The position numbers and the translations under genes are program-made. A stretch of DNA of 64,000 nt from a bacterium (GTDB lineage Bacteria; Sysuimicrobiota; Sysuimicrobiia; Sysuimicrobiales; Humicultoraceae), in contig DASYRG010000008.1 in the NCBI GenBank assembly GCA_036004665.1, positions 82,754-146,753 on the forward strand, given 5' to 3'. Below, one piece after another: positions 5,111 through 64,000 of the stretch. How positions within the stretch are numbered: position 1 is the stretch's first letter; each line of letters opens with the position of its first letter. The notes below the pieces were generated by a model that ran no database searches, was not told the origin of the DNA, and saw only the letters and a list, made by a program, of their open reading frames with translations.

Positions 5111-7660
5111 ATGCGCGTCTACGAACTGGCCAAAGAACTGGGGCTCAGCAGCAAGGACCTCATCGAGGTCCTCGGGCAGCTGATGGTTTCGGTCAAGAGC
5201 CACTCCTCCACACTCGACGAGGTGACCGAGCGCCGCGTCCGGGAGGAGGTCGCGTCCCGACACGCCTCGCGCCAGACCGCTGCTGGCAAAGCCACCACCG
5301 GAAAAGCTGCCGCCGGCAAGGCATCGGCGAAAGCCGCTCCGGCGAAGGCGGCGAGGGCCCCGGCCAAGCCGACCCTGGACACGCCCGCCGCATCCCCAGA
5401 ACCTGCGCGCGCCGACGTGAAGACGCCGACGGGAGAACGCATCCTCTCGATCCGCAAGATCGTCGCTCCGCCCCCCGAACCGGCGGCGGAGCCGGCCGCG
5501 CCTGCTCCAGCCGAGGCCGCTGCGGGTGAGCCCTCCCGCGCGCCCGGGGTCCGACCGCAGGAACTCGAGCGCCCGGCGGCGGCCGCGCCCAGTGCCGCCC
5601 CGGCGGTGCCCAAGGCGCCGGCTATCGGAGAGGGGGCGCCGATCCGCATTGCCCCGGTGAAACCCCCGACGCGGGAGGCCGCCCGTGAAGCCGCCCGCGA
5701 GACGGTCGCGCCCGCGGAGATGGCGCAGATCTTTGAGCCGACCGCCGCACCTCCGCTTCCGCCGGCCGAAACCCCGCCCCGGGAGGTGCGCCCCGTCACG
5801 CCGCCTTCGGCGCCGAGGCGGCCCGAACGCCGGCTCCCTCCGCCACCACCACCGCGGCGGTTCCATGCCGAACGGCGCCAACGGCGCACGGAGGCTAGGC
5901 CCGAACCAGTGCCGGAGGTTGCCCCCGTTCTGCCGGAGTCGATCAGCCTGACGGGTCCCATCGGCGTCGGCGAGCTTGCGGTGAAACTAGGCATGCCCGT
6001 CGGCGAAATCGTGAAGAAACTGCTCGAGTTCGGCATGCTGGCGGGGATCAACCAGCAGCTCACCGAGGAGGCGGCCGCCAGGACCATCAAGGCCTTCGGC
6101 GTGGCCGTCCACGGGCCGGAAGCGGCAGGCGCCGCAGGCCCGCGCGCGGCGGCCCCGGTGGACGAGGCGGCGGTGGCGCGTGCGCCGGTCGTCACGGTGA
6201 TGGGGCATGTCGACCACGGGAAGACCAGCCTGCTGGATGCCGTCCGCGCCACCTCCGTGGCCGCGCAGGAGGTCGGCGGCATTACCCAGCACATTGGCGC
6301 CTCCACCGTCGACGTCGACGGGCGGCGCATCGTCTTCATCGACACGCCCGGCCACGAAGCCTTTACCGCGCTGCGGGCCCGCGGCGCCCGCGTCACCGAC
6401 ATCGCCGTCCTGGTGGTGGCGGCGGACGACGGGGTGATGCCGCAGACGGTCGAGGCGGTTGACCATGCCCGCGCCGCGGGCGTGCCCATCATCGTGGCCA
6501 TGAACAAGACCGATCTGCCGCAAGCCAACCCGGATCGGGTGAAGCAGCAACTCTCCGACCTGGGCCTGGTCCCCGAAGAGTGGGGCGGGGAAACGGTCAC
6601 CGTGCCGGTCTCGGCGCGGCAGCGTCAGGGCCTCAAAGAATTGCTCGAGATGATTCTTTTGGTGGCGGACCTGCACGAACTGCGGGCCAATCCGGAACGG
6701 CCGGCTCGCGGCACCATCCTCGAGGCGCGAATGGACCGCGGCCGGGGCCCGGTGGCGACGGTCCTCGTGCAGGAGGGGACGCTGCGCGTAGGCGATGCGG
6801 TCATCGCCGGTGAGACGTTGGGACGCGTGCGCGCGCTGCTCGACGAACGCGGCGCCCGCGTGGGCACGGCCGGGCCGGCTACCCCGGTCGAAGTCGTGGG
6901 GCTGGAGTCGTTGCCCAACGCCGGAGACGTGCTGGAGGTGACATCCGAGGATCGAGCGGCTCGCGTGATGGCGCAGGAACGGGCCGACCGCCGCCGGGCC
7001 ACTGAGGGGGCCGCGCGCGGCGGCCTAGTCGAGCGCATCGGTGAGACGGGGCGGGTGGAGCTGCGCCTCATCGTCAAGGCCGACGTTCACGGCTCGGCGG
7101 AAGCCCTGCAGGCGGCCCTCGCCAGGCTGGAAGACGCCGAGGTGGCGGTCTCGGTCCTGCACGTCGCGGTGGGACCGATCACCGAATCGGACGTGATGCT
7201 GGCGGCGGCGAGTCGGGCGGTGATCGTGGGCTTCAACGTGCGCCCCGAGGCGGCAGTGCGGCGGTTGGCCGAGCAGGAGAAGGTCGAGATCCGCCTCTAC
7301 CGCATCATCTACGAGGTTCTCGACGACCTGGCGGCACTGGTGCGCGGGCTGCACGCCCCCAAGACCCAGGAGGTCGTCCTCGGTCAGGCCGAGGTGCGCC
7401 AGACCTTCGCCATCCCCAAGGTTGGGACCATTGCCGGGTGCTACGTCACCAGCGGGCGCATCCTCCGCGGCGCCTCCGCGCGGCTGCTGCGCGAAGGCGC
7501 GGTCGTCTATCAAGGGGCCATCAGCTCGCTGCGGCGGTTCAAGGACGACGTGCGCGAGGTGGCCGAAGGCTTCGAGTGCGGTATCGGGCTGGAGCGCTTC
7601 CAGGACATCAAAGCCGGCGACATCATCGAAGCCTATCAGATGCAGCAAGTCCCGGCCTGA
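5111..7660 (+). CDS. infB: translation initiation factor IF-2
   Basis: 849 aa; [12 protein letters not shown]-terminus, Ala/Pro-rich linker, GTPase motifs [17 protein letters not shown] and DTPGHEAF. Confidence 0.95.
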
Positions 7661-7684
7661 GCGCGCCGGCGGCAGGGAGGCCAG

Positions 7685-7966
7685 GTGATCGTCGGAGTGC
7701 TGCGGGCCGAGTTGTCCCTCGGCGGGGTGCGCAGCCTGAAGGACAAGCGGCGGATCATCCAGAGCCTGCTCGACCGGGCGCGGCGGCAGTTTCGCGTCGC
7801 GGCCGCCGAGGTGGAGGCGCAGGACTCCTGGCGGCGGGCCGTCCTCGGGTTCGCCTGCGTCAGTTCGGAGGGCGCCCACGCCAGTCAGATTCTGGCGCGG
7901 GTGACCGCGATGATCGAGCGGGAAGGCGACGTCACCCTGCTGGACGCCTCCAGCGAACTACTCTGA
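7685..7966 (+). CDS. ylxP: DUF503 protein (YlxP-like)
   Basis: 93 aa; GTG start; conserved position between infB and rbfA. Confidence 0.75.
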   Translation: MIVGVLRAELSLGGVRSLKDKRRIIQSLLDRARRQFRVAAAEVEAQDSWRRAVLGFACVSSEGAHASQILARVTAMIEREGDVTLLDASSELL

Positions 7967-34365: not shown

Positions 34366-34617
34366 ATGGTCGTCTGGATCGAGGAGCAGGCCTTTCTCAG
34401 CGCGGCGGAGGTCTGCGCTGCACTGGGAGTGAAGCCGCAAACGCTGTATGCGTACGTCAGCCGGGGGGTGCTGCACAGCTACCGTCAGGGCAAGCGCCGC
34501 GAACGGCTGTATCTGCTCCGCGAGATCGAGGCGCTGATGCGACTCCGGCCGGCCCGCGAGCGCGGACCGCGCCGGGTGGACCTCCCCCGCGCCGACGACT
34601 GGGTCGGGGAAGTCTAA
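34366..34617 (+). CDS. small HTH protein (MerR/excisionase-AlpA-like DNA-binding domain)
   Basis: 83 aa; LSAAEVCAALGVKPQTLYAYVSRGVL helix-turn-helix; ATG overlaps the citrate-synthase-like stop. Confidence 0.55.
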   Translation: MVVWIEEQAFLSAAEVCAALGVKPQTLYAYVSRGVLHSYRQGKRRERLYLLREIEALMRLRPARERGPRRVDLPRADDWVGEV

Positions 34618-37600
34618 CTCCCGCGAAGCGGAGCAGGCTCCTCTTCCTCGATCGGAGGAAGATCATCTTCCTTGCGGAGGATTGCTCCCCTGGGGCTGGC
34701 CAGGGCGATCGCGCGCAGGTCTTCCGGCAGCGAGTCGAAGACGCGACGCAGGAGCCCGCGCAGGGTCTCGCGGTCATCTGGGCGATGGAACCACTCCCAC
34801 AGCCGCTCATACCCCCCGAGCTGCAGCGTCACGTTTTGAATCGACTCCGCCTGGGCGATGCCCGCCCTGAGTCTCACCTCCGCCTCCCCGGGCCGCCCAT
34901 CGTGGTAGGCGAGGAGGGCCTCCAGAAGGGCCAGGCTGGCCAGGTGATGCGCCGCGCCCCAGCGCTCCACGCCCGGCCGCCGATCGCGCACGAAGGCGCG
35001 CAGGTCGTCGATGCGTCCGGCCTCGTAGAGCGCCTCCCCGACCGGTCCGATGACCTCGCCGTCGTCGGGGATGAAGATGTTCCAGGGCAGCGCCAGGATC
35101 CGGTCGATCGCGCGGTTCACTTCGGCCTGATCCCCATCCAGCCTGGCGGCGAGCACGCTGGAGAGCAGCCATATCTGCTGCCACCCGGGGTTGGCCGGCG
35201 CGTCGAGCGCCAGCGCCTCGGCCAGCAGGGCGCGGGTGCGTCCCACGTCGCCGATTTCGTAGATCACCTGGGCGAGGTACATCAGAGCAAAGGGCAGATG
35301 GATCTTGGCGGTCTCCCGCAGCTCCCTGACCATCTCTTCCAGGCGGCGGAGGGCTTCGCCCCAGCGGCCCAGCCCGAGGAGGACGGGAGCGATGAAGGAG
35401 ACGGTGAAGCCCATGCGCCGGCGATCGCCGATCGATTCGGCCAGCGCGAATGCCTCCTCGCCATAGCGCAGCGCCTCCGGATAGCGTCCCCAGTAGGCGT
35501 GGATGACGGAGAGGTAGCTGATGCTGGTGGCCTCCTTGGACTTGTCGCCGGCCCGGCGTGCGGCGGCGAGCGCCTCCTGAACCGCGGCCAAGGCCTCCTC
35601 GCCGTTCGCTGCGGCGAAGTGCCCCATCGCCATCAGGTTCAGGCCGCGGGCGACACCGGAAAGATCCCCGGCCTGGCGCAGGAAGGCGATGCCCTCCGGC
35701 AGCCGCGGGTCATGGAGGACGATCTCTCCCCGGTCCCACCCGACGTTCGCCAGGTCGAGCAGAGAGAGGCCGAGCGTGCGCCGGTCTTCCGTCTCGCGCG
35801 CCAGGATCGCCGCCCGGGAGAAATGCTCCTCTGCCTCGTCGAGCCGCAACTCACGGTGGTGGATAAAGCCCACACGCTGCTCCATCTGTGCTTCCAGCCT
35901 GCGGTCGCCTGCCGCCCGCGCCAGCGTCAGGGCCTGGGAAAAGTCCGTGAGGGCGTCGGGATAACTGCCGCGAAGTTGATGGACCTCGCCGCGGTCGCGG
36001 GCCAGAGTCGCGAGCTCACCCGGAGGGAGGCCCGCCCGGCTCGCCGCCTCGAGGGCCTGATCGAAGAGGCGGAGCGCGTCCTCATTGGCATAGAGTCGGC
36101 GCGCCTTGTTGGCCGCGCGGTGGAGGTAACCGGCCGCGCGCGCATCGTCCCCGGCCGCGCGTGCGTGCTCGCCGAGGATGTCGATCACATCCTCGGTGCG
36201 TTCGCCGAGTGTCCCCTCCAGCCAGCGGAGGGCCTCGGCGTGCGCTCGCTGGCGCTGGGTCTTCGGCAGCAGCCCGTAGGCGACGTCGCGGGTGAGGATG
36301 TGTCGGAAGGCGTACTCCGGTTCGCCGATGGCCGAGCGGGGCCGAGCAACCACGAGCTCCTTGCTGATCAGGGCGTCGATGGCCGGCTGCACTGCGTTCT
36401 CCTCGAGACCGGCGAGGGCACGCACGGCGGAGGGCCAGAAGGCCCGCCCCAGCACCGAGGCGGCCTGCAGCGCTCGGCGTTCATCGGGGGGGAGCCTGTC
36501 GATGCGGGCGGTCAGCACGGCCTGGACGTTGTCAGGAATCGCGCCGCCCGGTCCGCCCCCTTCCATCAGCATCCGCACGAGCTCCTCGACGAAGAGGGGG
36601 TTCCCCTCGGCGCGCTGGGCCACAGCCTGACGCATTTCGGCGGCGAGGCCCTTGCTGCTGAGGGCGGCCACGAGGGCCTCTGCCTCCTCGGGGCGGAGCG
36701 GTTTCAGTTCAAAGGAAATGGCGTTTCGCCCGCCGCCGCCCCAGTTGCGCCGCCGCTCCAGCAGCTCCGGCCGGGTGAGACACATGACGAACACCGGCGC
36801 CTCGGCGATGCGTTCCACCATGGCCGAGATGAGGTCGAGGACCCCATCGTCCGCCAAGTGCAGGTCCTCCAACGCGAGAATCACCGGCCGGGCGGCGGCG
36901 AGTCCCACCAGCACCCCCTGCCACGCGTCGAAGAGCGCGCGGCGCAGCTGCTCCGGGTCGGCGGCGGCCTCGGGACCGCCATCGGCGGCGCCGAAGGTGA
37001 GGAGCAATCCCTCTAGTAGGGCCTCGCCCCCCTCGCCGAGCGCCGCGGTCAACCATTCGCGCATCTTCGACCGTACGATTTCGGGGCGATCAGTATCCAT
37101 CAGCCCGGCCTGTATCCGCAGGATCTCCAGCAGGGCGTGGTAGCCGATCTGCCCGCCGAAGGCCACGCCGCGGCCCCGCAGCACCAGGGGCGGCGGATCA
37201 TCGTCGCGCACTTCGGCCAGGAATTCCCGCAGGAGGCGGGATTTGCCGACGCCCGCCTGCCCGAACACTGTCACCATCTGCACCAGGCGGTCCTCCCGGC
37301 TGCGCTGGTAGAGATGGCGGAGCAGGCCAAGTTCGCCGTGGCGACCGACCAGAGGAGCGGCGATCCGGTGGTCCTCGGGCGACTCCGGGAGAGGCGCCAG
37401 GGCGGTCCAGACCATCAGAGGGGCGGACTTCCCCTTGACCGTGAGCGGAGGCAGCGGCCGGTAATCGATCGCCTCCTTCGTCGCCCGGTAGGTGCGCTCC
37501 CCCACCACCACGCTCCCGGCGGGCACGTTCTGCATGATGCGCGCGCCGCTCGTCACGGCGTCGGCCACGAGGAAGTCCCGGTCGAAGGTCGACCCCGATG

Positions 37601-38150
37601 CCGCCACGACCTCTCCGGTGTTGATACCGACCCGCACGGCCAGCCGCACTCCCACCGTGGCGGCGAGATGCTCGTTGAGGACGGGGAGGGCGTCGCGGAC
37701 GGCCAGCCCGGCGCGCACCGCGCGCTCGGGATCGTCCTCGTGCGTGACGGGGAGGCCAAAGACGGAGAGCACCTCGTCCCCGATGAGATTGGCCACCGTC
37801 CCGCCGAAGCGTTCCACGGCATGTTGCACGACGGTGTAGAACTGCCCGACGACCATTCGGGCGTCTTCCGGATCGAGCTGTTCCGTCAGCGGTGTGGAGT
37901 CGGCCAGATCGACGAAGAGGACGGTGACCACCTTGCGCGCCTCCGCCGTGAGCACCGGCCCGGCGGCTGGAGGATGGGCGTGAGCCGCGAGGGGGATGCC
38001 GCAGTTGGCGCAGAAGCGCGCGCCCTCGGCGACCGGGGTGCCGCATTCGGGGCAGAGCTCCTGCTGGGGTTTGCCGCAGTTGGCGCAGAAGCGGGCGGTG
38101 GGCGAGTTGGGCTGACCGCAGTTCCAGCAGGGCCGGGTGTCGGTGATCAT
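34614..38150 (-). CDS. multidomain signalling protein: N-terminal double zinc ribbon, class III adenylate/guanylate cyclase domain, STAND/AAA ATPase and a long TPR-like C-terminal region (start taken at MITDTRPCWNCG)
   Basis: CWNCG...CANCG...CPECG...CANCG ribbons; cyclase VTVLFVDLADSTPL...NTGEV; Walker A GQAGVGKS; the ORF-track ORF extends to 38450, but the ATG at 38150 lies directly before the zinc ribbon. Confidence 0.8.
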   Translation of the reverse strand: MITDTRPCWNCGQPNSPTARFCANCGKPQQELCPECGTPVAEGARFCANCGIPLAAHAHPPAAGPVLTAEARKVVTVLFVDLADSTPLTEQLDPEDARMVVGQFYTVVQHAVERFGGTVANLIGDEVLSVFGLPVTHEDDPERAVRAGLAVRDALPVLNEHLAATVGVRLAVRVGINTGEVVAASGSTFDRDFLVADAVTSGARIMQNVPAGSVVVGERTYRATKEAIDYRPLPPLTVKGKSAPLMVWTALAPLPESPEDHRIAAPLVGRHGELGLLRHLYQRSREDRLVQMVTVFGQAGVGKSRLLREFLAEVRDDDPPPLVLRGRGVAFGGQIGYHALLEILRIQAGLMDTDRPEIVRSKMREWLTAALGEGGEALLEGLLLTFGAADGGPEAAADPEQLRRALFDAWQGVLVGLAAARPVILALEDLHLADDGVLDLISAMVERIAEAPVFVMCLTRPELLERRRNWGGGGRNAISFELKPLRPEEAEALVAALSSKGLAAEMRQAVAQRAEGNPLFVEELVRMLMEGGGPGGAIPDNVQAVLTARIDRLPPDERRALQAASVLGRAFWPSAVRALAGLEENAVQPAIDALISKELVVARPRSAIGEPEYAFRHILTRDVAYGLLPKTQRQRAHAEALRWLEGTLGERTEDVIDILGEHARAAGDDARAAGYLHRAANKARRLYANEDALRLFDQALEAASRAGLPPGELATLARDRGEVHQLRGSYPDALTDFSQALTLARAAGDRRLEAQMEQRVGFIHHRELRLDEAEEHFSRAAILARETEDRRTLGLSLLDLANVGWDRGEIVLHDPRLPEGIAFLRQAGDLSGVARGLNLMAMGHFAAANGEEALAAVQEALAAARRAGDKSKEATSISYLSVIHAYWGRYPEALRYGEEAFALAESIGDRRRMGFTVSFIAPVLLGLGRWGEALRRLEEMVRELRETAKIHLPFALMYLAQVIYEIGDVGRTRALLAEALALDAPANPGWQQIWLLSSVLAARLDGDQAEVNRAIDRILALPWNIFIPDDGEVIGPVGEALYEAGRIDDLRAFVRDRRPGVERWGAAHHLASLALLEALLAYHDGRPGEAEVRLRAGIAQAESIQNVTLQLGGYERLWEWFHRPDDRETLRGLLRRVFDSLPEDLRAIALASPRGAILRKEDDLPPIEEEEPAPLRGS

Positions 38151-38223
38151 GGCTGTAATCCGTTCATGGCAGGGGATTCCCAACCGCGGGAGGGAACCCT
38201 CCGGCGTCAAGGAGGAATCCCGG

Positions 38224-39162
38224 CTGAAGACATTATCGGTCATCGCCGCCGGCGGCGCCAACGTCGACGTCAAGGTCCGCACGGCGTCGCCGCCCACCGA
38301 GGGCCGCTCAACGCCGGGGGAGGTCCATCTCGCCCCGGGGGGAGCGGCGCGGAACGTCGCAGAAGCGCTCGCGCGGATGGGGGCGGAGGTGGCGCTCCAC
38401 ACCGCCGTGGGCGCGGACGCCTTTGGCGACTGGCTGATCGCCGTGACCACCGCTGCCGGCGTCGACTGCGCCGCGGTTTTTCGCGGTCCTGGTCAGACAG
38501 GGATCTACGTCACCGTCAACGGCGCCGGCGTCGCCGACGCGTCACTCGTCGAATCGCTGGACCCCGCGTGGCCCGCGTGGCCCGGGACGGAGGGGGTCGT
38601 GCGCGTACTCGATGCCAATCTCTCCGCCTCCGTGATCGCGCGGCTGGCCGCCCCGGCGTCGGCCTCGCGGCTCGTCCTCATTGGTACCTCGCCGGCCAAA
38701 GTCGCGCGCCTACGACCGCTGCTGCGGGACGCATGGCTGCTCTGTCTGACCGCCGCGGAAGCAGCAGCGCTCCTGGGCGCGGGAGCGCATGCTGGTGGAG
38801 AACCGCTCGCCCGCGCGGTGGCGGCGTTGGGACCGGCGCAGGTCCTTCTCACGGAGGGCGCTCGGGGACTGGGTCTGCTGGCCGACCCTCATCCCAGCGC
38901 AGCGCGGGGAAGATGGTGGACGCACCCGGCCCGCCCAGCTGTGGCCCTCGTCGATCCCACTGGCGCGGGAGATGTCGCGGCGGCCGCGCTCACCTTCGGG
39001 CTCGCCGCAGATCTGGCGCCCGAGCGCATTCTCGCCGCGGCCGCGGAGGCGGCGGCGATGACCGTCGGGACCTGGGGGAATGTGCCCCCAGAAGTGGGAA
39101 CTGTATGGAAAGGGATCAGTGAGGGTCCCACAGGTTCGCGCAGTGAACCTGTGGGGAGTTGA
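38224..39162 (+). CDS. PfkB-family carbohydrate/nucleoside kinase (probable pseudouridine kinase); the start is uncertain (AAGGAGGA RBS 8 nt before a CTG; upstream in-frame ATG at 38149)
   Basis: LSVIAAGGANVDV N-terminal motif, C-terminal GAGD motif (DPTGAGDVAAAA); co-operonic with psuG. Confidence 0.7.
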   Translation: MKTLSVIAAGGANVDVKVRTASPPTEGRSTPGEVHLAPGGAARNVAEALARMGAEVALHTAVGADAFGDWLIAVTTAAGVDCAAVFRGPGQTGIYVTVNGAGVADASLVESLDPAWPAWPGTEGVVRVLDANLSASVIARLAAPASASRLVLIGTSPAKVARLRPLLRDAWLLCLTAAEAAALLGAGAHAGGEPLARAVAALGPAQVLLTEGARGLGLLADPHPSAARGRWWTHPARPAVALVDPTGAGDVAAAALTFGLAADLAPERILAAAAEAAAMTVGTWGNVPPEVGTVWKGISEGPTGSRSEPVGS

Positions 39163-54668: not shown

Positions 54669-56063
54669 GTGGGAGCCTCCGATCCCCGCCTCCGGCTCCT
54701 CCCCTCGGTGGAACGCGTCCTCTGGCAGTTGGAGTCCTCGGGCCGCCTCGACGGCATTCCCCGGCCGCTGGCCGCTCGGCTGGTCCGTCAGGCGGTTGAG
54801 ACGGCGCGCAGACGCTTGATCGAGGGGCGCGCCGTGGAGGAGTGGACCTCGGAGCAGGTCGTCGAGGAGTCCGCGCGACTGCTCGCGCGCTACGGCCACC
54901 CCTCCCTGGTCCGCGCCCTCAACGCCACGGGCATTCTCATCCACACCAACCTGGGACGGGCCCCCCTGAGCGCCGCCGCCCGGGAGGCGGTGGAGAAGGT
55001 CTTGCCGGGCTATGCCCTCCTGGAGACCAATCCCGAGACCGGCGAACGGGGCTCGCGCCAGGCGCACATCGAGGCGATGCTCCAGGAGATCTCCGGCGCC
55101 GAGGCCGCCATCGCCGTCAACAACAACGCGGCGGCGGTCACCCTGGGGCTGGCGGCGCTCGCGGCGGGCCGCCGGGTCATCGTCTCCCGCGGCGAGCTGG
55201 TTGAGATCGGCGGCTCCTTTCGCATGCCCGACGTCATGGCGCAGAGCGGCGCCGAGTTGGTCGAGGTGGGGACGACCAACCGGACCCACCTCGCGGACTA
55301 CGAGCGCGCGATCAGTCCCGAGAGCGCCCTCCTCCTGAAGGTCCACCGCAGCAACTTTGCCATGTCGGGGTTCGTCCACGAAGTGGCCGTCCGCGATCTC
55401 GTGGCGCTGGGCGCTGCTTCTGGCGTCCCCGTCATGTACGACCTGGGCAGCGGAGCGCTGGTGGACCTGACCGAGCGGGGCCTCCCGGCCGAACCGACGG
55501 TGCAGGAGGCCGTGGCCGCCGGATGCGCCCTCGTCACCTTCAGCGGGGACAAGCTCCTCGGCGGGCCACAGGCCGGCCTGCTGGTGGGCCGGGCCGACGC
55601 GGTCGACCGCTGCCGCCGCCATCCCCTGGCGCGGGCGGTCCGGATCGGGCGCCTGGACCTGGCCGCCCTCGCCGCCACGCTGCGCCATTACCTCACTCCT
55701 GATGAAGCCTGGAGGGAGATCCCGGTCCTGCGCATGCTCGCGGTCGGCGTGGAGGAGTTGACCGATCGGGCACGGCAACTGGCCAGCCGGCTCACGGCCA
55801 TACTCGGAGAGGCCGCCGAGGTCATCGTAGTCAGGGCGGAGGCGCAGACGGGAGGAGGCGCCCTCCCCGGCCTCTCGCTGCCGTCGGCGGCGGTGCGGGT
55901 GCGGCCGAGGAGCGCCACGGCCGATCGCTGGGCGGCCGCGTTGAGACAGGGACGGCCGCCCGTGGTCGTGCGGATCCAGGAGGACGCCCTCGTGGTCGAC
56001 CTCCGCACGCTCGCCCCCGAAGAGTTCGAGGCGCTCGAAGGCGCCTTCGCCGCGGTGCGGTGA
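54669..56063 (+). CDS. selA: L-seryl-tRNA(Sec) selenium transferase
   Basis: 464 aa; [16 protein letters not shown] and [13 protein letters not shown] (PLP lysine region). Confidence 0.9.
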
Positions 56064-58060
56064 GCGGGTCACCGCCTTCTGTCGTCGCGGAAGCGGCCCC
56101 CTTCGTCATCGGCACGGCGGGCCACATCGACCACGGCAAGAGCGCGCTGGTCCGCGCCCTCACGGGGATCGACCCCGACCGGCTCCAGGAGGAGAAGCGG
56201 CGCGGGATGACGATCGATCTCGGATTTGCCCACCTCGATCTGCCCGACGGCCGCCGCGCGGGTATCGTCGATGTCCCCGGCCACGACCGGCTGATCCGCA
56301 CCATGCTCGCGGGGGCCGGGGGCATGGACCTCGTGTTGCTGGTGGTGGCGGCGGACGAGGGGGTCATGCCGCAGACGCGCGAGCACCTGAACATCCTGCG
56401 CTTCCTGCGGCCCCGCGGGGGCATCATCGTGCTCACGAAGATCGACCTGGTCGATGACGCCGCCTGGGTCGCCCTGGTAGAAGAGGAAGTGCGCCGCCTC
56501 ACCGCAGGCACTTTCCTCGATGGCGCGCCCCTCATCGCGACCTCTGCCCGCACCGGCGGGGGTTTGGAGGCGCTGGTGGCGGCGATCGGCCGGAGCCTGG
56601 ACGCCCTCACCGCCCGCTCCGCAGACGGCGCGGTCCGTCTGCCGATCGACCGGGTTTTCACCATGGCCGGTTTTGGCACCGTCGTCACCGGCACGCTCTG
56701 GAGCGGCCGCATCCGCGCGGGGGATGCGTTGACGGTCCTCCCGCTGGGTGATACGGCACGGGTGCGACAAATCGAGCGGCACGGCGTGCGGGTCGAGGAG
56801 GTCACGGCCGGGTCGCGCGCCGCCCTCAACCTCGCCGGGGTGGAGCGGGAGTCGCTGGCCCGGGGCTCGGTGCTTGCCACCGCCGGGACGCTGCGACCAT
56901 CTCTGCTGCTGGATGCGCAGGTCCGTCTCCTGCCTGAAGCGCCGGTCGTCCCTCACCTGTCGCGGCTGCGATTCTACCTCGGTACGGATGAGGCGCTGTG
57001 CCGCATCGCCCTCCTGGACCGGGATCGTCTGGCGCCGGGAGAAGAGGCGCCGGCGCAACTGCGCTTCGAGCAGCCGGTGGTCGCGGCGCGGGACGACCGG
57101 TTCGTTCTGCGCCGATACTCGCCGCTGGAGACGCTGGGGGGTGGAGAGGTCGTGGCAGTGGACCCACCGCGCCGCCGCCGGGGCGCCGCCGCCGCCGAGA
57201 CGGTCGCCGCCCTCGCCGCGGCCCCGCCTGAGCGACTGCTGCGGGAGGCGGTCGCGGCCCGTGGCCTCGCCGGTGCCACCGCGGAAAGTCTGGCCCCGCT
57301 CCTCGCCGAACCGCCCGCCGCACTGGTCGCGAGGCTGCGCCCCCTGGTGAGCGCGGGCGATCTGCTCCAGGCGGGTGAGCGCTTCTATGCGCGGGAAGTG
57401 AAGGATGAGGCGAGGGAGGCCCTCCTCCGACTCCTTGACCAGACTCACCGGGAGCAGCCCTGGCGCCTCGGCCTGCCCCGCGACGAGATCCGAGGGCGGG
57501 CGCTGAAAGGGGCCGACGATCGCCTGGCCACCACCGTCTTGGATCATCTGACCGCCTCCGGCGCCATCGGCGTGACACGCGGGTTTGTTCACCGCTCGGA
57601 GCACCGTCCCCGCTATCGGCCGGAGGAAGCGGTGTGGCGGGAGATCATCTATAGGACGATCGGCGAAGGCCGGTTCGCCCCGCCGGGACTGGCCGAAGTG
57701 GAGGGTCAGACTTCCGGCCGGGGGGAGCAGGGCCCAGGGCCAGGCGGGAAGGCGTTTCAGGTGGCGGTGCAGTCCCTGCGGGAGGAAGGAGCGCTGCTCG
57801 AGGTCGCCCCGGGGATCCTCTTTGCGACGGGCGCCCTCGAAGAGATCCGCCAGACGATCGTGGCGCGGATTCAAGAGAGGGGAGCGATCACGGTCGCCGA
57901 CCTCCGCGACACGGTGGGAACGAGCCGGAAGTATGCGCTGGCGCTACTCGAGTACTTCGACGGAATCCGGCTCACCCGCCGGATCGGTGACCGCCGGGTC
58001 CTGGCGGGCCGGGCGGCAGAGGCGTCTCCGTCTCCATCCGCTCCGCGCCCTCCTCGGTAG
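56060..58060 (+). CDS. selB: selenocysteine-specific elongation factor
   Basis: 666 aa; GTP-binding [24 protein letters not shown]; C-terminal winged-helix SECIS-binding repeats. Confidence 0.9.
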
Positions 58061-58063
58061 CCC

Positions 58064-59248
58064 CTACCTCGCCTCCTCGACTTTTCCGGAGAGCACCTTC
58101 CACGTGGCCTGCCATTCGGCGCCGGCGCCGAGACACGGTCCGGTGGCCGCGAGGTCGATGGCCACCTCCACCCGCGCGTTGGGGGCGAGTTCCCCGACGC
58201 GCACGGTCCCTTTGCGGACGTCGGTGAAGGTCCTGGGGACCTGGGGAAAGGTGCTGCCCACCGGGGTCACAGTGCAAGTCCGGCGCATCTCGATTTCTAC
58301 GACCAGTCCGGTGATCTTCAGGGAGCTGCGGTTTGTCACAGCCGCAAAGGTGCCGCTGCCGCGTTCGGCCGTCGCCCCCAGCACCGTCACTTCCAGGAGA
58401 CGCTCGAGGACGAGAGTGGTGAACGCCCCGGCATCCTTCACGTCCTGAGCCGCTTCCGCCAGCGCGACGGTGGGCCGGTTCATCGGCCGCACCGTGACGA
58501 TGAAGCGCGCGACCACATCATCGATCGTCAGGCGGACTTCAAAAGACCCCGCCCGTCCGCCCCCGATCGGATTGGGTACGAGGGTGGTCGTCCCTTCGCC
58601 CACTCGCCCGCCGTCCGGCCCGAGCAGGACCACCTGGACGAAGAGTGCCAGCGGAGGTCCGGCGTTGGAGACGGACCCGACGACCACGAAGGTCGTGCCT
58701 TCGACCCGTCCGCTGAGAGAGCGGAAGGCGACGGCGCTCTCGGTCCCCGGCGGCGGGGGCGCCACCCTGGCCGGCACGGCGTCGGGACGGAAGACCTCGA
58801 TCAGGGTGACACGGCCGTCGGTGAGCACGAATTCGACTCCGGTGAACGGGAAGACGTAGCGGACCACCGCGCCCGCGCGCCCCCGAAGGCTGCCGGGAGC
58901 ACGCTCGTACGCCAGGCGCACGCGGGCTTCGCTGTCGCCGACGCGCACCCCCTGGCTCGTCACACAGGTGGGATGGCGTGTGGCGACGCGGCTGACCTGA
59001 CCGCTCTCCGTCGTGATCTGCGCCAGCGTCGTGGTAAAGAGGTAGACGGTCTCCGCGGCCCGCACGCCGATCACGCGGCCGGCCGGACTGCCTGTCAGGC
59101 GGAGTGCTTCGGCGGTCGGCATTCCAATGCGGATCGTTCCTATGCCCACGCCCTCCGCGACGAGACAGGGAATAGGAGCCGAGAGGACGGGTGAAGGACC
59201 TGCGGCGGCGAGCAGCGCGGCGGCGAGCAGCGGGACGGCGAGACGCAT
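58064..59248 (-). CDS. secreted hypothetical protein with an N-terminal signal peptide; no recognisable domain
   Basis: Start taken at MRLAVPLLAAALLAAAGPSPVLSA with a perfect GGAGGAG RBS; beta-rich composition; the ORF-track ORF extends 18 codons further upstream. Confidence 0.6.
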   Translation of the reverse strand: MRLAVPLLAAALLAAAGPSPVLSAPIPCLVAEGVGIGTIRIGMPTAEALRLTGSPAGRVIGVRAAETVYLFTTTLAQITTESGQVSRVATRHPTCVTSQGVRVGDSEARVRLAYERAPGSLRGRAGAVVRYVFPFTGVEFVLTDGRVTLIEVFRPDAVPARVAPPPPGTESAVAFRSLSGRVEGTTFVVVGSVSNAGPPLALFVQVVLLGPDGGRVGEGTTTLVPNPIGGGRAGSFEVRLTIDDVVARFIVTVRPMNRPTVALAEAAQDVKDAGAFTTLVLERLLEVTVLGATAERGSGTFAAVTNRSSLKITGLVVEIEMRRTCTVTPVGSTFPQVPRTFTDVRKGTVRVGELAPNARVEVAIDLAATGPCLGAGAEWQATWKVLSGKVEEAR

Positions 59249-59345
59249 ACACTCCTCCGAAAACGTGTGATGGACGACGGCCCCGCGCGTTCTTGGAGCC
59301 ATGATAGCATACCCTTAAAGGATCATTTACCCCGCTCTATCCCGC

Positions 59346-59440
59346 GGAGGGCAGTATCCGCTGGTGCGGGTCCCGGTCTTCAACACCGGTGGCGGGGCCT
59401 CGGGTTCCGCGCTGGGTTCGATTCCCAGGGCCCTCCGCCA
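59346..59440 (+). tRNA. selC: tRNA-Sec (anticodon UCA), selC
   Basis: GGAGGGC acceptor pairs with GCCCTCC-G-CCA; 6-bp D-stem ATCCGC/GCGGGT with 4-nt loop; anticodon loop CUUCAAC; 6-bp long variable arm; T-arm CTGGG-TTCGATT-CCCAG; CCA is encoded. Confidence 0.8.
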
Positions 59441-59514
59441 TCACTGCGCCATGCTCTCACCACGAGCAGCCCCCGAGGCTGCCTCACGCCCACGCGTCGT
59501 CAAACCGTCGCCGC

Positions 59515-60690
59515 ATGGGCAGATATGTAAGCGTGAGTCTGACTCTGGGTCTCCGCATTGCCGACCGCTACGTCACGCGCGAACTCCTCGGTCCATTCTT
59601 TCTCGGGGTGGGGGGGTTCATCGTGGTGCTCGCCGGCGACATCCTCTACACGCTGGCGGAGTTCCTGGCCACAGGACAGATCAGACTGGGTGTTCTTCTG
59701 GCACTCCTGGCGTACAAGCTTCCCGCCATTCTGGTGGTGACCTTTCCGGTGTCCACCCTCTTTGCCATCCTCCTGGGAGTGGGGCGCCTGGCGCGAGACC
59801 GGGAGGTGCAGGCCTTTCGCCTGGCTGGCCGCTCACTCACCCGGATCTTTCTCCCCGTGCTGCTCTTCGCAGCGGTGATGGCCGGCGCGGGCTTTGCGAC
59901 GAACGAGTTCTTCGCGCCGTGGGCCAATCAGCGGGCCAACGCGCTGCTGCGCCGGGCCGCCTTCGGCGAGGCCGGGCCGCTGATCCGCCAGCAGGTCTTC
60001 TTCCGGGACAGCGGCGACCGGGTGTTCTACGTCGAGCAGGTCGACAGCAGCCGGAAAACACTGCGCAACGTCATGATCTACGATGCGAGCCGTCCCCTCC
60101 CGCGGGTGATCACGGCCCGCGAAGCGTCTTGGGAGCCGTCCCGCGAAGCCTTCGCGGAGCCCTCGCTCTGGCGGCTGCGCGATGGCGTGGTGCGTGAGCT
60201 CGACGAGCAGGGCTTCACCCGGTTTGAAACGCGCTTCGCCAGCCTGGATCTGGCGGTGGCGGTCGAAGAGGCCACTCTCACCGGCGACGAACGCCGCCCC
60301 GACGAGATGACCGCCCGGGAGCTGCAGAGCCGGCTGCGCCTCTTCAGCCCCGGGGACCTGCCGCCGCGGCTGGCCATGGAGTTCCACCGCAGGTTCGCGG
60401 TCCCCCTGACCAGCGTTGTCTTCGCCTTGCTGGCCGCCCCGCTCAGCCTGCACGTCGCCCAGGGGCGCTTCCTCAGCATCGGCATCAGCATCGTGTTGCT
60501 CTTCATCTATTACGCCGTGATGTCGATCGGGCGAGCCCTCGGCGCCACCGGCGCCGTCACGCCGGCGCTGGCCGCGTGGCTGCCCAACCTGCTCTTCAGC
60601 CTGGGAGGGCTGACGATGTGGGCGCGGGTGGAGGGAGGATGGCCGCGTCCTCTCCTCCCGATCGCCGCCCTGCGGAAACTGGTCAGATGA
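59515..60690 (+). CDS. LptF/LptG-family (YjgP/YjgQ) LPS export permease
   Basis: 391 aa from the ATG at 59515 (the ORF-track GTG at 59389 would overlap the tRNA); ADRYVTRELLGPFFLG N-terminal motif; 6 TM segments. Confidence 0.75.
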   Translation: MGRYVSVSLTLGLRIADRYVTRELLGPFFLGVGGFIVVLAGDILYTLAEFLATGQIRLGVLLALLAYKLPAILVVTFPVSTLFAILLGVGRLARDREVQAFRLAGRSLTRIFLPVLLFAAVMAGAGFATNEFFAPWANQRANALLRRAAFGEAGPLIRQQVFFRDSGDRVFYVEQVDSSRKTLRNVMIYDASRPLPRVITAREASWEPSREAFAEPSLWRLRDGVVRELDEQGFTRFETRFASLDLAVAVEEATLTGDERRPDEMTARELQSRLRLFSPGDLPPRLAMEFHRRFAVPLTSVVFALLAAPLSLHVAQGRFLSIGISIVLLFIYYAVMSIGRALGATGAVTPALAAWLPNLLFSLGGLTMWARVEGGWPRPLLPIAALRKLVR

Positions 60691-61187
60691 GCCGGACCGT
60701 GAGCCTGTTCCTCTCGGCCCTCCTCTTGCTCGTTGTGGGAGGGGCCGTCGGGTCTCACATGCGGGCCTCACGTTCGGCGCTCCCACACCCTCGAGCGGCG
60801 CCCGCGCCCTCCCACTCGCCCGCCCAACCCCCCCGCGGTGTGGCGGAACTGCGCGACACCACCCTGGTCGTGCGCCGCGCCGGGCAAAAGCAACTTGAGG
60901 TATCTGCCGAGCGTGTCTCGATCAGCAGTGATCAGCGGTACGCGATCTTCTCGGGGATCGTCCGGGCCTCGCTGAATCTGCGCGGGGGCCTCGCGCTGCG
61001 ACTGAGGGCCCCCGAGGCCTCCTGGGATGCGGCCCGGCGTCGCCTGGTGCTCCCCCGTGGCATCGAGATGGAAGCGGCCGGAAGCAGCATCCGCGCCGAC
61101 CGGCTGACGCTCGATCCAGACACCGCATCCCTGTTGCTGGAAGGTGACGTCCGGGTCACTTTTACGCTGGGTGGAGACGTGCCATGA
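60687..61187 (+). CDS. LptC-like single-pass membrane protein
   Basis: 166 aa; N-terminal TM anchor; ATGA overlap with the upstream stop; sits between lptFG and the lptA-like gene. Confidence 0.55.
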   Translation: MSRTVSLFLSALLLLVVGGAVGSHMRASRSALPHPRAAPAPSHSPAQPPRGVAELRDTTLVVRRAGQKQLEVSAERVSISSDQRYAIFSGIVRASLNLRGGLALRLRAPEASWDAARRRLVLPRGIEMEAAGSSIRADRLTLDPDTASLLLEGDVRVTFTLGGDVP

Positions 61188-62266
61188 CCCGCCGGACGCG
61201 CGGAAGAGTCGCGGCGCTCGCCACCGCCACCTGCCTGACCGTAATGGCCGCGGGGGAGACGCCGGGGTGGGGGCAGGGGATCCAGTTCGCCCCCGGCGAG
61301 CAGGGCCACCTCCGGGCCGACCGGGTGCGGTATGACGCCCGTACACAGGTGTTCTCGGCCGAAGGCGACGTCCAGCTCACCGTGGGGCGTCTGGAGATCC
61401 GCGCCGCCCGCCTGCGATTGGAGCGGCGCACCCAGATCGCCTACGCCTCCGGCGGGGTGACCGTCAGGGGGGACGACTTGGGACTCGCCGCGGCGCAGGT
61501 CAGTTATGAGATCAAGACGCGAATGGCCCGCGCGACCGGTGGAGCCCTCCTCACCCAAAGGGACGTGACGGTCCGGGCCCCCCAGGTCACGATCACCCTC
61601 ACCACCCAGCTGATTACCGCCTCCGGCGGAGTGACCGTCGTACAGGGGCGATCGACTCTGTCCGGCCATGCGCTCGCAGCCGACCTGATCTCCCGCCGGG
61701 CTGAGGTGGTGGGGGAGGCGGAGCTGCGACGCGCCGCCGCCCCCGACGCAGGGGCCACCTCCGATGCGGCCAGCGCGGCGGCCTCGAGGGAGGCGGTGAT
61801 CCACGCGCACCGGATGACCCTTCGCTGGAACCCTGATGAGGCCGAGGCCTCCGGGGGGGTGCGCATCCTCCAGGGGGAGCGTGTGGCCCGGGCAGAGCGG
61901 GCGCGCTATGTCGAATCGAGCGGGCGCCTGGATCTGGAGGGCGATGTCGTCGTGGAGCGCTTCGGGGAGCGCCCGCCCCTCTCAGGAGCGGGCCTGGCCG
62001 CCCACCGGTTGGTGGTCAGCCTGCGTGACGGGGGTATGGACGCCCACGGCGGCGTGCGCGTGACCCAGGACGGTCGCAGCGCGGCGGGGGAGCGCGCCGT
62101 CTATCAGGAACGGGAGCAGCGGGTCACCGTCACGGGGCGCGTGCTCCTGACCGACGAAGACGGCAACACGGTGCGCGCCGATCGTGTCGTCATCCTGCTC
62201 AATGAAGAATCGTTCGAGGCTTCCGGGAACGTCGAAACCGTGTTCAAGGTGAAGCCCGGCAAATAA
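61184..62266 (+). CDS. LptA/OstA-like periplasmic protein with tandem OstA N-terminal-like beta-jellyroll repeats
   Basis: Signal peptide; repeated motifs such as RADRVRYDARTQVFSAEGDVQLT and RAERARYVESSGRLDLEGDVVV. Confidence 0.65.
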   Translation: MTRRTRGRVAALATATCLTVMAAGETPGWGQGIQFAPGEQGHLRADRVRYDARTQVFSAEGDVQLTVGRLEIRAARLRLERRTQIAYASGGVTVRGDDLGLAAAQVSYEIKTRMARATGGALLTQRDVTVRAPQVTITLTTQLITASGGVTVVQGRSTLSGHALAADLISRRAEVVGEAELRRAAAPDAGATSDAASAAASREAVIHAHRMTLRWNPDEAEASGGVRILQGERVARAERARYVESSGRLDLEGDVVVERFGERPPLSGAGLAAHRLVVSLRDGGMDAHGGVRVTQDGRSAAGERAVYQEREQRVTVTGRVLLTDEDGNTVRADRVVILLNEESFEASGNVETVFKVKPGK

Positions 62267-62281
62267 GGCCCGGTCCCCCCG

Positions 62282-64000
62282 ATGCCCGGCCGCCCCCTCC
62301 TTCTCCTCATCCTCTTCCTGGCCGCCGCCGGGGCTGCCCTGACCGCGCCGCGTCCCGCCGCCGCCCAGGAGACGCCGGATGGGCTGCCGGTGCGGATCAG
62401 GGCGGACAGCTTCCGGTATGACCGGCGGACGCGGGTGCTCACCGCCACGGGCAACGTGGTCCTCACCTTCCAGGAGGTGACGATCCGCGCCGACGCCCTG
62501 GTGGCCAATCTGGAGAGCGGCGACGTCACCGCGGAAGGCCACGTCCAGCTGGAGGTGGCGGGACAGTCCGTCTCCTCCGACCTCCTCAGCTACAACCTGG
62601 CGACCCGGTTCGGGACGCTCACCAACGCCCGCACGAGCTACACTGGGCCGCTGGTCCTCGGGTCGGTGCACCTGCGCGCGCAGCAGCTCGAAGGGATCCC
62701 CAACCAATCGGTGACGATCCGCGGCGGCTTCCTCACCACCTGCGACGAAACCGATCCGATCGTCCACCTCACCGCCGACGAGATCACCGTCTACCTGGGC
62801 GACCGGATCGTGGGCCGACGGGTCTCCGTCTGGCTGGGCGGCCGGCGCCTCTTCACGCTCCCGTCCTTCCTGATCTTCCTGCGGGAGCGGCGCGAGACCC
62901 GCCTCCTCCCGGTCCTCGGCTACAGCGAGGCGGAGGGGATCTTCGTCAAGACCACCTACAGCTACGCCCTCAACGCGCAGCACTACGGGTTCCTCTACGG
63001 GGACTGGATGGAGCGCCTGGGCGTAGGGACCGGCATCGAGCACCTCTACCAGATCGGTGGGACACGAGGGTCGGCCCTGGTCTACCGGCTTGACAACCGC
63101 CAGACCGGCGGGGTCGACCTGCGGGCGATCTTCAACCACCGACAGACCGTGAATCCCCACCTTGGGCTGGCGCTCTACGCGGACTACTCGCGGCGCAGCG
63201 CGGCCGGCGGGCCGCCGACCTCAGACTTCTTCGGCGCGCTCGACCTCCAGTACACGACGCCGCGCTCGAACACCTATCTCTTTGCCACCGCCGCCACATT
63301 TGCGCCGGGGTCCGCCTCAGTGCTGTCCGGGCGCCTGGCCCACGCGCAGGCGCTGAGTCCTCACCTGTCTGTGGAAGCGTTTCTCGACCTCAGCCGAGTC
63401 GAGAGCGTCGCGGGGACCGACGACGAGGCGGCGCCGCGTCTGGCGCTCCTCTACCTCGCGCATGGCGTCAACGCCTCACTGGTGACAGACATGCGCTGGG
63501 ACCTTGACGGCGATCGCTTTCCCTTCGATACGCGCTACTCCCTGGAACGGCTGCCGGAGCTGACGGTCTCGCTCGCCCCCATCTTTCTCGGCGGCGGGTT
63601 GACAGTGCAGCTCGATGGGGGGCTCGGCCGCTTCAGGGAGACGACGGTGGGAGCGGGGACCGCCGTCCTCGAGCTGGGACGGGCCGACGCCACGATCACC
63701 GTGAGCGGACCGGTGCCGCTGGGGTCGGGAACGCTCGGCGTCCGTACGCAGCTGCGCGGCAGCTGGTACAGCAATGGGGCGTCCCGCATCTTCTACAACG
63801 GCCGCCTCGAGTATACGTGGCCCCTCGGCGTGGGGGTGGTGAGCCGCCTGGGCTATTCGGGACAGGGCGCCTCTGGAATCAGCCCGTTTGTCTTCGATCA
63901 GATCACGGCGATGTTCAGTGCAGCCGACGCGACGCTCTTCTACCAGCGCCCAGGGCTCTTCGCGCAGGCTACCGCCTTCTACGACCTCCAGCTGCGGCGG
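62282..64000 (+). CDS. LptD-like outer-membrane protein, 5' partial (runs off the window)
   Basis: Signal peptide MPGRPLLLLILFLAAAGAALTAPRPAAAQ; OstA-N-like motif IRADSFRYDRRTRVLTATGNVVL; the frame is open to position 64000; not in the ORF track because it has no stop. Confidence 0.7.
   Translation, partial: MPGRPLLLLILFLAAAGAALTAPRPAAAQETPDGLPVRIRADSFRYDRRTRVLTATGNVVLTFQEVTIRADALVANLESGDVTAEGHVQLEVAGQSVSSDLLSYNLATRFGTLTNARTSYTGPLVLGSVHLRAQQLEGIPNQSVTIRGGFLTTCDETDPIVHLTADEITVYLGDRIVGRRVSVWLGGRRLFTLPSFLIFLRERRETRLLPVLGYSEAEGIFVKTTYSYALNAQHYGFLYGDWMERLGVGTGIEHLYQIGGTRGSALVYRLDNRQTGGVDLRAIFNHRQTVNPHLGLALYADYSRRSAAGGPPTSDFFGALDLQYTTPRSNTYLFATAATFAPGSASVLSGRLAHAQALSPHLSVEAFLDLSRVESVAGTDDEAAPRLALLYLAHGVNASLVTDMRWDLDGDRFPFDTRYSLERLPELTVSLAPIFLGGGLTVQLDGGLGRFRETTVGAGTAVLELGRADATITVSGPVPLGSGTLGVRTQLRGSWYSNGASRIFYNGRLEYTWPLGVGVVSRLGYSGQGASGISPFVFDQITAMFSAADATLFYQRPGLFAQATAFYDLQLRR

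Follow-up and report, generated by a model that had tools for sequence, protein, structure and literature searches.

Bacterial tRNA-Sec, the selenocysteine (Sec) tRNA encoded by selC, carries three completely conserved residues, C15, G20a and G48, which form a base triple specific to this tRNA, and the stem of its variable arm ranges from 6 to 9 bp (Itoh et al., PMC3711452). Beside the canonical branch of eight acceptor positions and a 5-bp T stem (8+5), natural 12-bp (7/5) bacterial tRNA-Sec variants are on record (PMC5330540, PMC5389517), in which seven residues separate the T stem from the discriminator (PMC5330540). Other tRNA-Sec-like tRNAs with UCA anticodons also occur in bacteria, including SelC* tRNAs, which carry U73, and allo-tRNAs, which have 8/4 or 9/3 branches (PMC5389517). 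We analysed a 64,000-nucleotide (nt) stretch of DNA (the window; contig DASYRG010000008.1 of assembly GCA_036004665.1, positions 82,754 to 146,753) from an uncultured, high-GC (70%), Armatimonadota-like bacterium that carries selA, selB and selC. A 95-base sequence in this window is a genuine tRNA-Sec gene of the standard bacterial kind, displaying all the sequence-testable defining features of tRNA-Sec. Its product is apparently functional, an explanation to which we assign an overall probability of about 0.9.

The sole tRNA called by ARAGORN in the window was a tRNA-SeC with anticodon tca, on the forward strand and at exactly the coordinates listed for selC in Table 1. An Rfam scan matched the same sequence to RF01852 (tRNA-Sec) from 59346 to 59436, spanning positions 1-91 of the 91-position model (67.7 bits, E = 1.2e-11; gathering score 47 bits). 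RF01852 outscored the general tRNA model of the same clan at selC, the best clan member being kept, and was the only Rfam family above threshold in the window. A permissive Rfam rescan of 57800-61300 returned nothing credible besides the tRNA-Sec. ARAGORN and the Rfam model, two independent detectors, both give tRNA-Sec, a result far from anything expected by chance. The original prediction, made by a model from the letters of the sequence, had placed a tRNA-Sec with a UCA anticodon at these coordinates and had named as its refutation a tRNA finder that did not call SeC; put to this test in an equivalent form, with ARAGORN and the Rfam tRNA-Sec model, the call survived.

The structure of the tRNA was taken from the ViennaRNA minimum free energy fold, with which the centroid agrees, and is numbered here in gene coordinates (1-95). 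The acceptor helix pairs G1-C7 with G85-C91 over 7 bp, and the next residue, A8, faces G84 in a layer that ViennaRNA leaves open. A 2-nt linker (G9 U10) leads into the D stem, formed by 6 bp between A11-C16 and G21-U26 (AUCCGC/GCGGGU) and closed by the 4-nt loop UGGU. The anticodon stem (C28-U32/A40-G44; 5 bp) carries the 7-nt loop CUUCAAC, in which ARAGORN places the anticodon tca at position 35, and a C27·U45 mismatch forms a possible sixth layer of this stem (26:44). Neither the D stem nor the anticodon stem has a bulge. The variable arm (G47-C54/G58-C65) has an 8-bp stem, GCGGGGCC/GGUUCCGC, with two G·U pairs and a 3-nt loop, falling inside the 6-9 bp bacterial range. A single linker residue, G66 (= G48), joins it to the 5-bp T stem (C67-G71/C79-G83), and the discriminator G92 (= G73) is followed by an encoded CCA. 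The 23 distinct tRNA-Sec loci in which the discriminator was compared all have G73, and C16, G21 and G66, the equivalents of C15, G20a and G48, were invariant in a 16-sequence alignment. The anticodon loop (borne out by ARAGORN and the fold), the 6-bp D stem with its 4-nt loop and the encoded CCA had all been read correctly beforehand; the variable arm had been under-counted at 6 bp.

tRNA-Sec genes for comparison were gathered via SelB loci and via loci of the protein encoded next to selC; in a SelB-based scan of GTDB genomes, the best among the matches listed was only about 50% identical. The acceptor helix GGAGGGC/GCCCUCC was identical in 13 of 13 tRNA-Sec genes of the window's lineage, and at the eighth layer A8 stood opposite G in 12 of these and opposite A in one. 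Among 13 tRNA-Sec genes located beside selB in other phyla, the eighth layer was G·A in eight and G·G in one, and a Watson-Crick eighth pair occurred only in the Rokubacteria/Methylomirabilota and Desulfuromonas sequences. Watson-Crick pairs fill seven acceptor layers of the window tRNA, with A·G in the eighth. Eight residues (GGCCCUCC) separate the T stem from the discriminator, not the seven of the 7/5 variants. Each acceptor strand counts 8 nt and the T stem has 5 bp, which gives an acceptor/T branch of 13 layers in the 8+5 register. Because eight rather than seven nt separate the T stem from G73, and because a purine-purine layer recurs both in the lineage and in other phyla, the sequences are best read as a canonical bacterial 8+5 register with a conserved non-Watson-Crick last layer. 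The original prediction had noted the A8·G mismatch and had taken it as grounds to doubt the 8/5 geometry; the mismatch is present in the fold, but a purine-purine layer that is lineage-wide and common in other bacteria removes the doubt that was drawn from it.

The tRNA could also be described as a 7+5 (12-bp) variant, with A8 and G84 unpaired, a 3-nt acceptor-D linker and one extra nucleotide on the 3' side. That the fold leaves A8/G84 open, that the lineage's tRNA-Sec genes nowhere have a standard pair at this position (A8·G84 or A·A) and that 12-bp tRNA-Secs exist in nature all speak for such a variant, which we nevertheless consider unlikely. The eight residues counted here set the register of canonical 8+5 tRNAs, and the GU linker equals that of the Desulfuromonas tRNA-Sec (L070), whose eighth pair is Watson-Crick. 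Moreover, the strict purine-purine occupancy, seen in Firmicutes too as G·A, suggests a stacked non-canonical pair.

The protein partners of the 8+5 tRNA-Sec are encoded upstream of it, as had been predicted. Besides the Pfam domains in Table 1, NCBIfam equivalogs identified selA (TIGR00474; 558 bits against a cut-off of 267.9, profile positions 1-450 of 455) and selB (TIGR00475; 366.5 bits against a cut-off of 242.25). The start of selB overlaps the stop of selA by 4 nt, and the tRNA starts 1,285 nt downstream of the end of selB, where about 1.3 kb had been proposed. The gene lying between them, which encodes an uncharacterised protein of 394 amino acids (aa) and is referred to below as the intervening gene, is convergent with selB (3 nt between the stops) and divergent from selC across a 97-nt intergenic region. 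Since this inserted gene sits on the opposite strand, selC is not co-transcribed with selAB.

A promoter of its own, lying in the 97-nt divergent region, probably drives selC, and the best candidate is TGnTAGCAT at 59302-59310. This element is part of the motif CATGATAGCATACC, which holds TAGCAT on the forward strand, with an upstream TG as in extended -10 elements, and TATGCT on the reverse strand. The motif occurs as a single copy in the window and recurred in each of the 12 retrieved loci whose sequence covers the corresponding part of the intergenic region; CAT.ATA.CATACC was invariant across six aligned loci of the clade. Its two -10 hexamers are offset so that positions 2 and 6 pair. Such pairing between opposite -10 elements is reported for bacterial bidirectional promoters with start sites 18 bp apart (bioRxiv 10.1101/2020.01.31.928960). 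The motif probably serves as a promoter for the intervening gene and/or selC, as judged from its sequence and conservation. In the sublineage whose motif lacks the TG (L087, L090, L095), an extra TAGAAT box lies 9-10 nt upstream of the tRNA, and in loci of a more distant subfamily a TACAAT box lies 24 nt upstream of it. Every sublineage thus carries some plausible candidate for the -10 element of selC, the choice among them being inferred.

The predicted forward start near 59317 would give a tRNA leader of ~29 nt, to be removed by RNase P, and the predicted reverse start near 59299 a 5' untranslated region of ~51 nt for the intervening gene. The mature tRNA would be serylated by SerRS, by way of its long variable arm and G73, and converted from Ser- to Sec-tRNA(Sec) by the adjacent SelA, by way of the 6-bp D stem with its 4-nt loop. 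The adjacent SelB would then carry Sec-tRNA(Sec) to UGA codons followed by selenocysteine insertion sequence (SECIS) hairpins, while the extended 13-layer acceptor/T branch would keep the tRNA off EF-Tu. In E. coli tRNA-Sec the position of the last acceptor layer is part of the EF-Tu antideterminant region.

Several observations weigh against a functional selC expressed and used in this way. The eighth layer is never a standard pair in the lineage, so that 13-layer stacking is assumed. The window and L081 have C at position 38 (window position 59384, tRNA position 39), where all other tRNA-Secs compared have A; C32/C38 here stands in place of C32/A38, a small oddity. The distance from CATGATAGCATACC to the ATG of the intervening gene is fixed, at 50-51 nt in six of the seven loci measured (the seventh, L081, gave 45 nt by script, probably from a mis-picked ATG), and the distance to the tRNA varies from 28 to 60 nt, so the motif may belong primarily to the intervening gene. 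A consensus scan of 57500-60500 found no sigma-70-type promoter on the forward strand and no intrinsic terminator near the tRNA, such a scan being uninformative in a non-model organism of 70% GC; the 92-nt spacer between the tRNA and the permease gene that follows contains a modest hairpin (59464-59481). As for use of the system, Pfam annotation found no selD in the 64-kb window. A selenoprotein search, in which about 44 open reading frames (ORFs) were annotated with Pfam and each pair of neighbouring ORFs in the same frame was checked, gave no candidate with an in-frame TGA in the window; it turned up only two TGA junctions, one at infB|DUF503 and one at an ORF that looks non-coding and precedes the IndA gene, neither of them a selenoprotein candidate. 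Selenoproteins may reasonably be expected elsewhere in the genome.

The lack of selD and selenoprotein genes in the window, together with the non-canonical eighth pair and the unusual C38, would also suit a decaying relic, a selC sequence persisting while the Sec trait is being lost from the genome. We consider this very improbable. selA and selB are intact and full length, and the A·G layer, rather than being a recent lesion, goes back to the ancestor of the whole lineage. The tRNA is also under purifying selection with compensatory changes, in loci whose neighbouring proteins are down to 51-85% identical. In a covariation alignment of eight lineage sequences (seven distinct), standard pairs filled 91.4% of the alignment cells, compared to 50-54% when the 3' partners were slid by ±1-2 columns and 36-53% at ±3. 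Six pairs, half of them in the D stem and half in the T stem, had changed on both sides, and the covariation score was above 500 of 500 shuffles. Between sublineages the variable arms show compensatory differences, with the acceptor and anticodon arms frozen. Such a pattern of change is what a working RNA would show and speaks against a relic. Least probable of all is a tRNA-Sec look-alike, either a tRNA-Cys of the SelC* type or an allo-tRNA that suppresses opal codons with Ser or Cys independently of SelA and SelB, of which bacterial examples with UCA anticodons exist: the window tRNA has G73, the 8+5 register and a 5-bp T stem, unlike SelC* and allo-tRNAs, it lies in a conserved selA-selB locus in every relative, and TGA is the commonest ordinary stop in the window (15 of 31 genes), which argues against general opal suppression.

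Table 1. Features of the selA-selB-selC locus, in window coordinates.
Feature	Coordinates	Strand	Evidence
selA, L-seryl-tRNA(Sec) selenium transferase	54669..56063	+	Pfam SelA E 5.5e-142; TIGR00474
selB, Sec-specific elongation factor	56060..58060	+	Pfam GTP_EFTU, Beta-barrel_SelB, SelB-wing_2, SelB-wing_3; TIGR00475
Intervening gene (uncharacterised 394-aa protein)	58064..59248	-	no Pfam/NCBIfam match; family alignments; AlphaFold2 model
Motif CATGATAGCATACC	59300..59313	.	back-to-back -10-like hexamers; conservation in relatives
selC, tRNA-Sec gene	59346..59440	+	ARAGORN; Rfam RF01852; fold; covariation; acceptor and pair-8 conservation in relatives
LptF/LptG-family permease gene	59533..60690	+	Pfam LptF_LptG E 1.3e-84; start revised to GTG 59533

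A secreted-protein gene separating selAB from selC had been part of the original prediction, and the ORF is real: it lies on the minus strand, is preceded by a Shine-Dalgarno sequence (GGAGGA) and encodes an N-terminus, MRLAVPLLAAALLAAAGPSPVLSA, that resembles a signal peptide of the secretory Sec type. NCBI lists the identical protein as 'MAG TPA: hypothetical protein VGR25_01985 [bacterium]', and neither Pfam nor NCBIfam gave a match to it. A word-indexed search returned just 13-17 close clusters (51-100% identity), and a HMMER search against 1.84 billion representatives returned 23 proteins at E<=1e-30, mostly full length or nearly so. Many proteins of ~160 aa in the same HMMER search matched the N-terminal domain only, and members of this group match BamE, CAP_assoc_N, DUF4309 and DUF7738. 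A distant full-length subfamily (32-37% identity) has the same four invariant Cys and comes from metagenome-assembled genomes labelled Armatimonadota; the family as a whole was found only in the Armatimonadota-like lineage. One member of the distant subfamily, P0172, is named 'FxLYD domain-containing protein'. As its residues 210-273 score 27.6 bits on NF038353 (cut-off 23) but the window protein gives no match even at E<=1, the middle beta-sandwich is at best a divergent FxLYD-like domain. The AlphaFold2 model has a mean predicted local distance difference test score of 70.5, with residues 35-87 below 50, and contains two C-terminal beta-sandwich domains. A Foldseek search of the PDB with this model hit generic tandem beta-sandwiches only (transglutaminase C-terminal barrels, TEP/C3 MG domains and arrestins; template modelling score about 0.2), and no assignment was made from it. 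As far as these data go, the model and the family matches suggest a secreted or envelope protein with a BamE-like domain and two immunoglobulin-like domains.

The position of the intervening gene was compared across 14 distinct loci (the window, L081, L083, L085, L087, L088, L090, L094, L095, L096, L097, L098, L099 and L100); a single-protein metagenome scan gave two loci. The family gene was tail-to-tail with selB in all 14, and a tRNA-SeC was head-to-head with it in all 11 loci whose sequence reaches far enough. Three loci of the distant subfamily have two tandem paralogs between selC and selB (L096 299-2832, L097 2642-4660, L100 129-2704). Between selB and the family gene, stop-codon spacing ranged from an overlap of 4 nt up to 37 nt in all but one of the 14 loci; in the remaining one an extra ORF intervenes and the distance is 175 nt. 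In most loci the spacing lay between a 4-nt overlap and 5 nt (the window, L083, L085, L087, L090, L096, L097 and L100). This leaves essentially no room for terminators, so the convergent transcripts of selB and the intervening gene must overlap, which could allow antisense effects on selB.

Two outgroup loci (L003 and L001) are without the family gene and have the tRNA directly after selB, on the same strand and at a distance of ~90 nt. L003, labelled Armatimonadetes, shares the SbcC-RNaseY-YmdB-PHP-SelA-SelB synteny (RNase Y 77% identity), and L001 shares at least SelB. Their selB-selC spacers contain repeats: GTGACTC-type inverted repeats that form a long hairpin in L001 (1858-1925), and about five tandem GTTCCCC units in L003 (7838-7872). 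From the direct selB-selC layout of the outgroups, the ancestral order is presumed to be selA-selB-selC, and the simplest history is an ancestral operon of these three genes into which the intervening gene was inserted and then retained.

Retention could reflect mere linkage between two essential neighbours or could be functional. That the family is a working part of the lineage's selenium/selenocysteine system and not a passenger would follow the sequence pattern, namely its place in the selB-selC gap in 14 of 14 loci, down to 32-37% identity and sometimes as tandem paralogs, the 45-100-nt divergent promoter region that it has in common with selC, and its tail-to-tail arrangement with selB; we hold this to be doubtful, at rather long odds. 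The product might be an envelope protein that handles selenium; alternatively, transcription of the gene might tie the output of selC to antisense read-through into selB and so keep SelB and tRNA-Sec in balance.

On the far side of the tRNA the synteny of the relatives breaks exactly at its 3' end. An Lpt block follows in the window, L081 and L085. In L083 and L087 the tRNA is followed by a conserved secreted ORF of 147 aa and then DUF305; these two adjoin the tRNA in L087 (817-1981), and in L083 (4031-5713) a TPMT-family methyltransferase gene stands between them, with MutS-MutL beyond. In L098 a 148-aa ORF (7363-7809) takes this same place next to the tRNA, beside IlvD and MutS-MutL. In the window's own genome the block of 147-aa ORF, TPMT and DUF305 (L091 1-4509) is found ~7.5 kb further on, with the Lpt genes and an S8 peptidase lying in between. 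In bacteria, TPMT enzymes act as methyltransferases on selenium and tellurium compounds.

selC is an integration site for genomic islands, among them the locus of enterocyte effacement of E. coli. The break in synteny at the tRNA 3' end recalls such islands, as does L099, where a phage-type integrase and MerR/HMA/CopCD genes lie 196 nt from the tRNA 3' end; this segment (L099 1-7870) looks like a metal-resistance island integrated at selC, with no tRNA-derived direct repeat in the 7.7 kb of it that was searched. Unlike at these islands, the 3' neighbour of selC in the window is a core Lpt cluster. An integrated element at the window's selC was considered and rejected: no segment of the tRNA is repeated elsewhere in the window over at least 14 nt.

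The longest ORF of the LptF/LptG-family permease gene starts at GTG 59389, within the tRNA; the original prediction had rightly set this start aside as an artefact, in favour of ATG 59515, 75 nt after the tRNA (74 nt as measured). That ATG is not conserved. Gene callers have given identical metagenome contigs products of either 391 aa (ATG 59515) or 385 aa (GTG 59533), and the LptF_LptG domain of Pfam begins at residue 18 of the ATG-59515 product. Because an in-frame TAA closes the upstream frame in L081 and L085, between the equivalent of ATG 59515 and the GTG, and because the GTG is conserved, GTG 59533, 92 nt after the tRNA, is the most likely start. The product scored 206.5 bits on the LptF equivalog TIGR04407 (cut-off 230) and 179.6 bits on LptG (cut-off 240), and is filed here only as a member of the LptF/LptG family. 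The genes that follow are LptC-like (weak), LptA/LptC-like and LptD_N-like, not lptG, and neither lptG nor lptB was found in the window. The cluster (60576-64000) is unusual in its make-up, with a 203-aa ORF giving a weak LptC match (24.6 bits against 38), a 360-aa LptA/LptC-like protein and a ~698-aa protein with an LptD_N-like domain.

Genes for RNase Y, YmdB and a PHP phosphoesterase precede selA. The PHP gene ends 11 nt before selA in the window, and three distant Armatimonadota loci have a zinc-ribbon gene of ~70 aa between the two (L098 13555-13767, L099 12610-12825, L100 6022-6246), which the window lacks. The window further contains an aspS/asnS-type synthetase gene, nusA, infB, pnp, dapB, dapA, the RNase J gene, ftsK, the citrate synthase gene, recA and sbcCD. 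In this otherwise forward-strand housekeeping stretch the only long minus-strand gene (34614-38492) encodes a 1,292-aa protein with double zinc ribbons, an adenylate/guanylate cyclase domain, an AAA_16 ATPase and TPR repeats.

Recognition of selC flags this genome for selenoprotein annotation, in which an in-frame UGA would otherwise be miscalled as a stop, and prevents mis-annotation of the LptF/LptG-family gene. We found no literature specific to Sec in Armatimonadetes. The gene contributes a clade whose tRNA-Secs without exception have a purine-purine last acceptor layer, and the orphan gene between selB and selC offers a modest lead toward accessory selenium genes.

Set against the canonical 8+5 tRNA-Sec (E. 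coli selC; Aquifex aeolicus crystal structure, PMC3711452), the window tRNA has the same UCA anticodon, eight acceptor positions and 5-bp T stem, and the same 6-bp D stem with 4-nt loop, long extra arm, C15/G20a/G48, 2-nt linker and G73. It differs in the A·G at layer 7:66, the C·U mismatch at 26:44, C38 and the unbulged D and anticodon stems. Firmicutes-type tRNA-Secs (Clostridium ragsdalei L004, Oscillospiraceae L066) have the same selB-selC neighbourhood and a purine-purine (G·A/G·G) eighth layer, but their purines are reversed (the G is on the 5' strand), their length is 97-98 nt and they follow selB directly with no intervening gene. The 7/5 and 8/4 tRNA-Sec variants, SelC* and allo-tRNAs (PMC5330540, PMC5389517) likewise depart from a perfect 13-bp Watson-Crick branch and have a long D stem with a tetraloop; they are marked by a seven-residue stretch from T stem to discriminator, by a T stem of 4 or 3 bp, or by U73, whereas the window tRNA has eight residues, a 5-bp T stem and G73. 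Nesting of selC in selB in Alphaproteobacteria (PMC8124441) is likewise an arrangement physically tying selC expression to selB, and the levels of SelB and tRNA-Sec are argued there to need balance. The window's selC differs in lying outside selB, beyond an opposite-strand protein gene and with its own upstream -10-like element. Both the purine-purine eighth layer and the selB-selC neighbourhood already occur in other bacteria; the orphan gene in the selB-selC gap, which is mildly unusual, and the compact divergent promoter region are lineage-specific, and the current understanding of bacterial selC stands.

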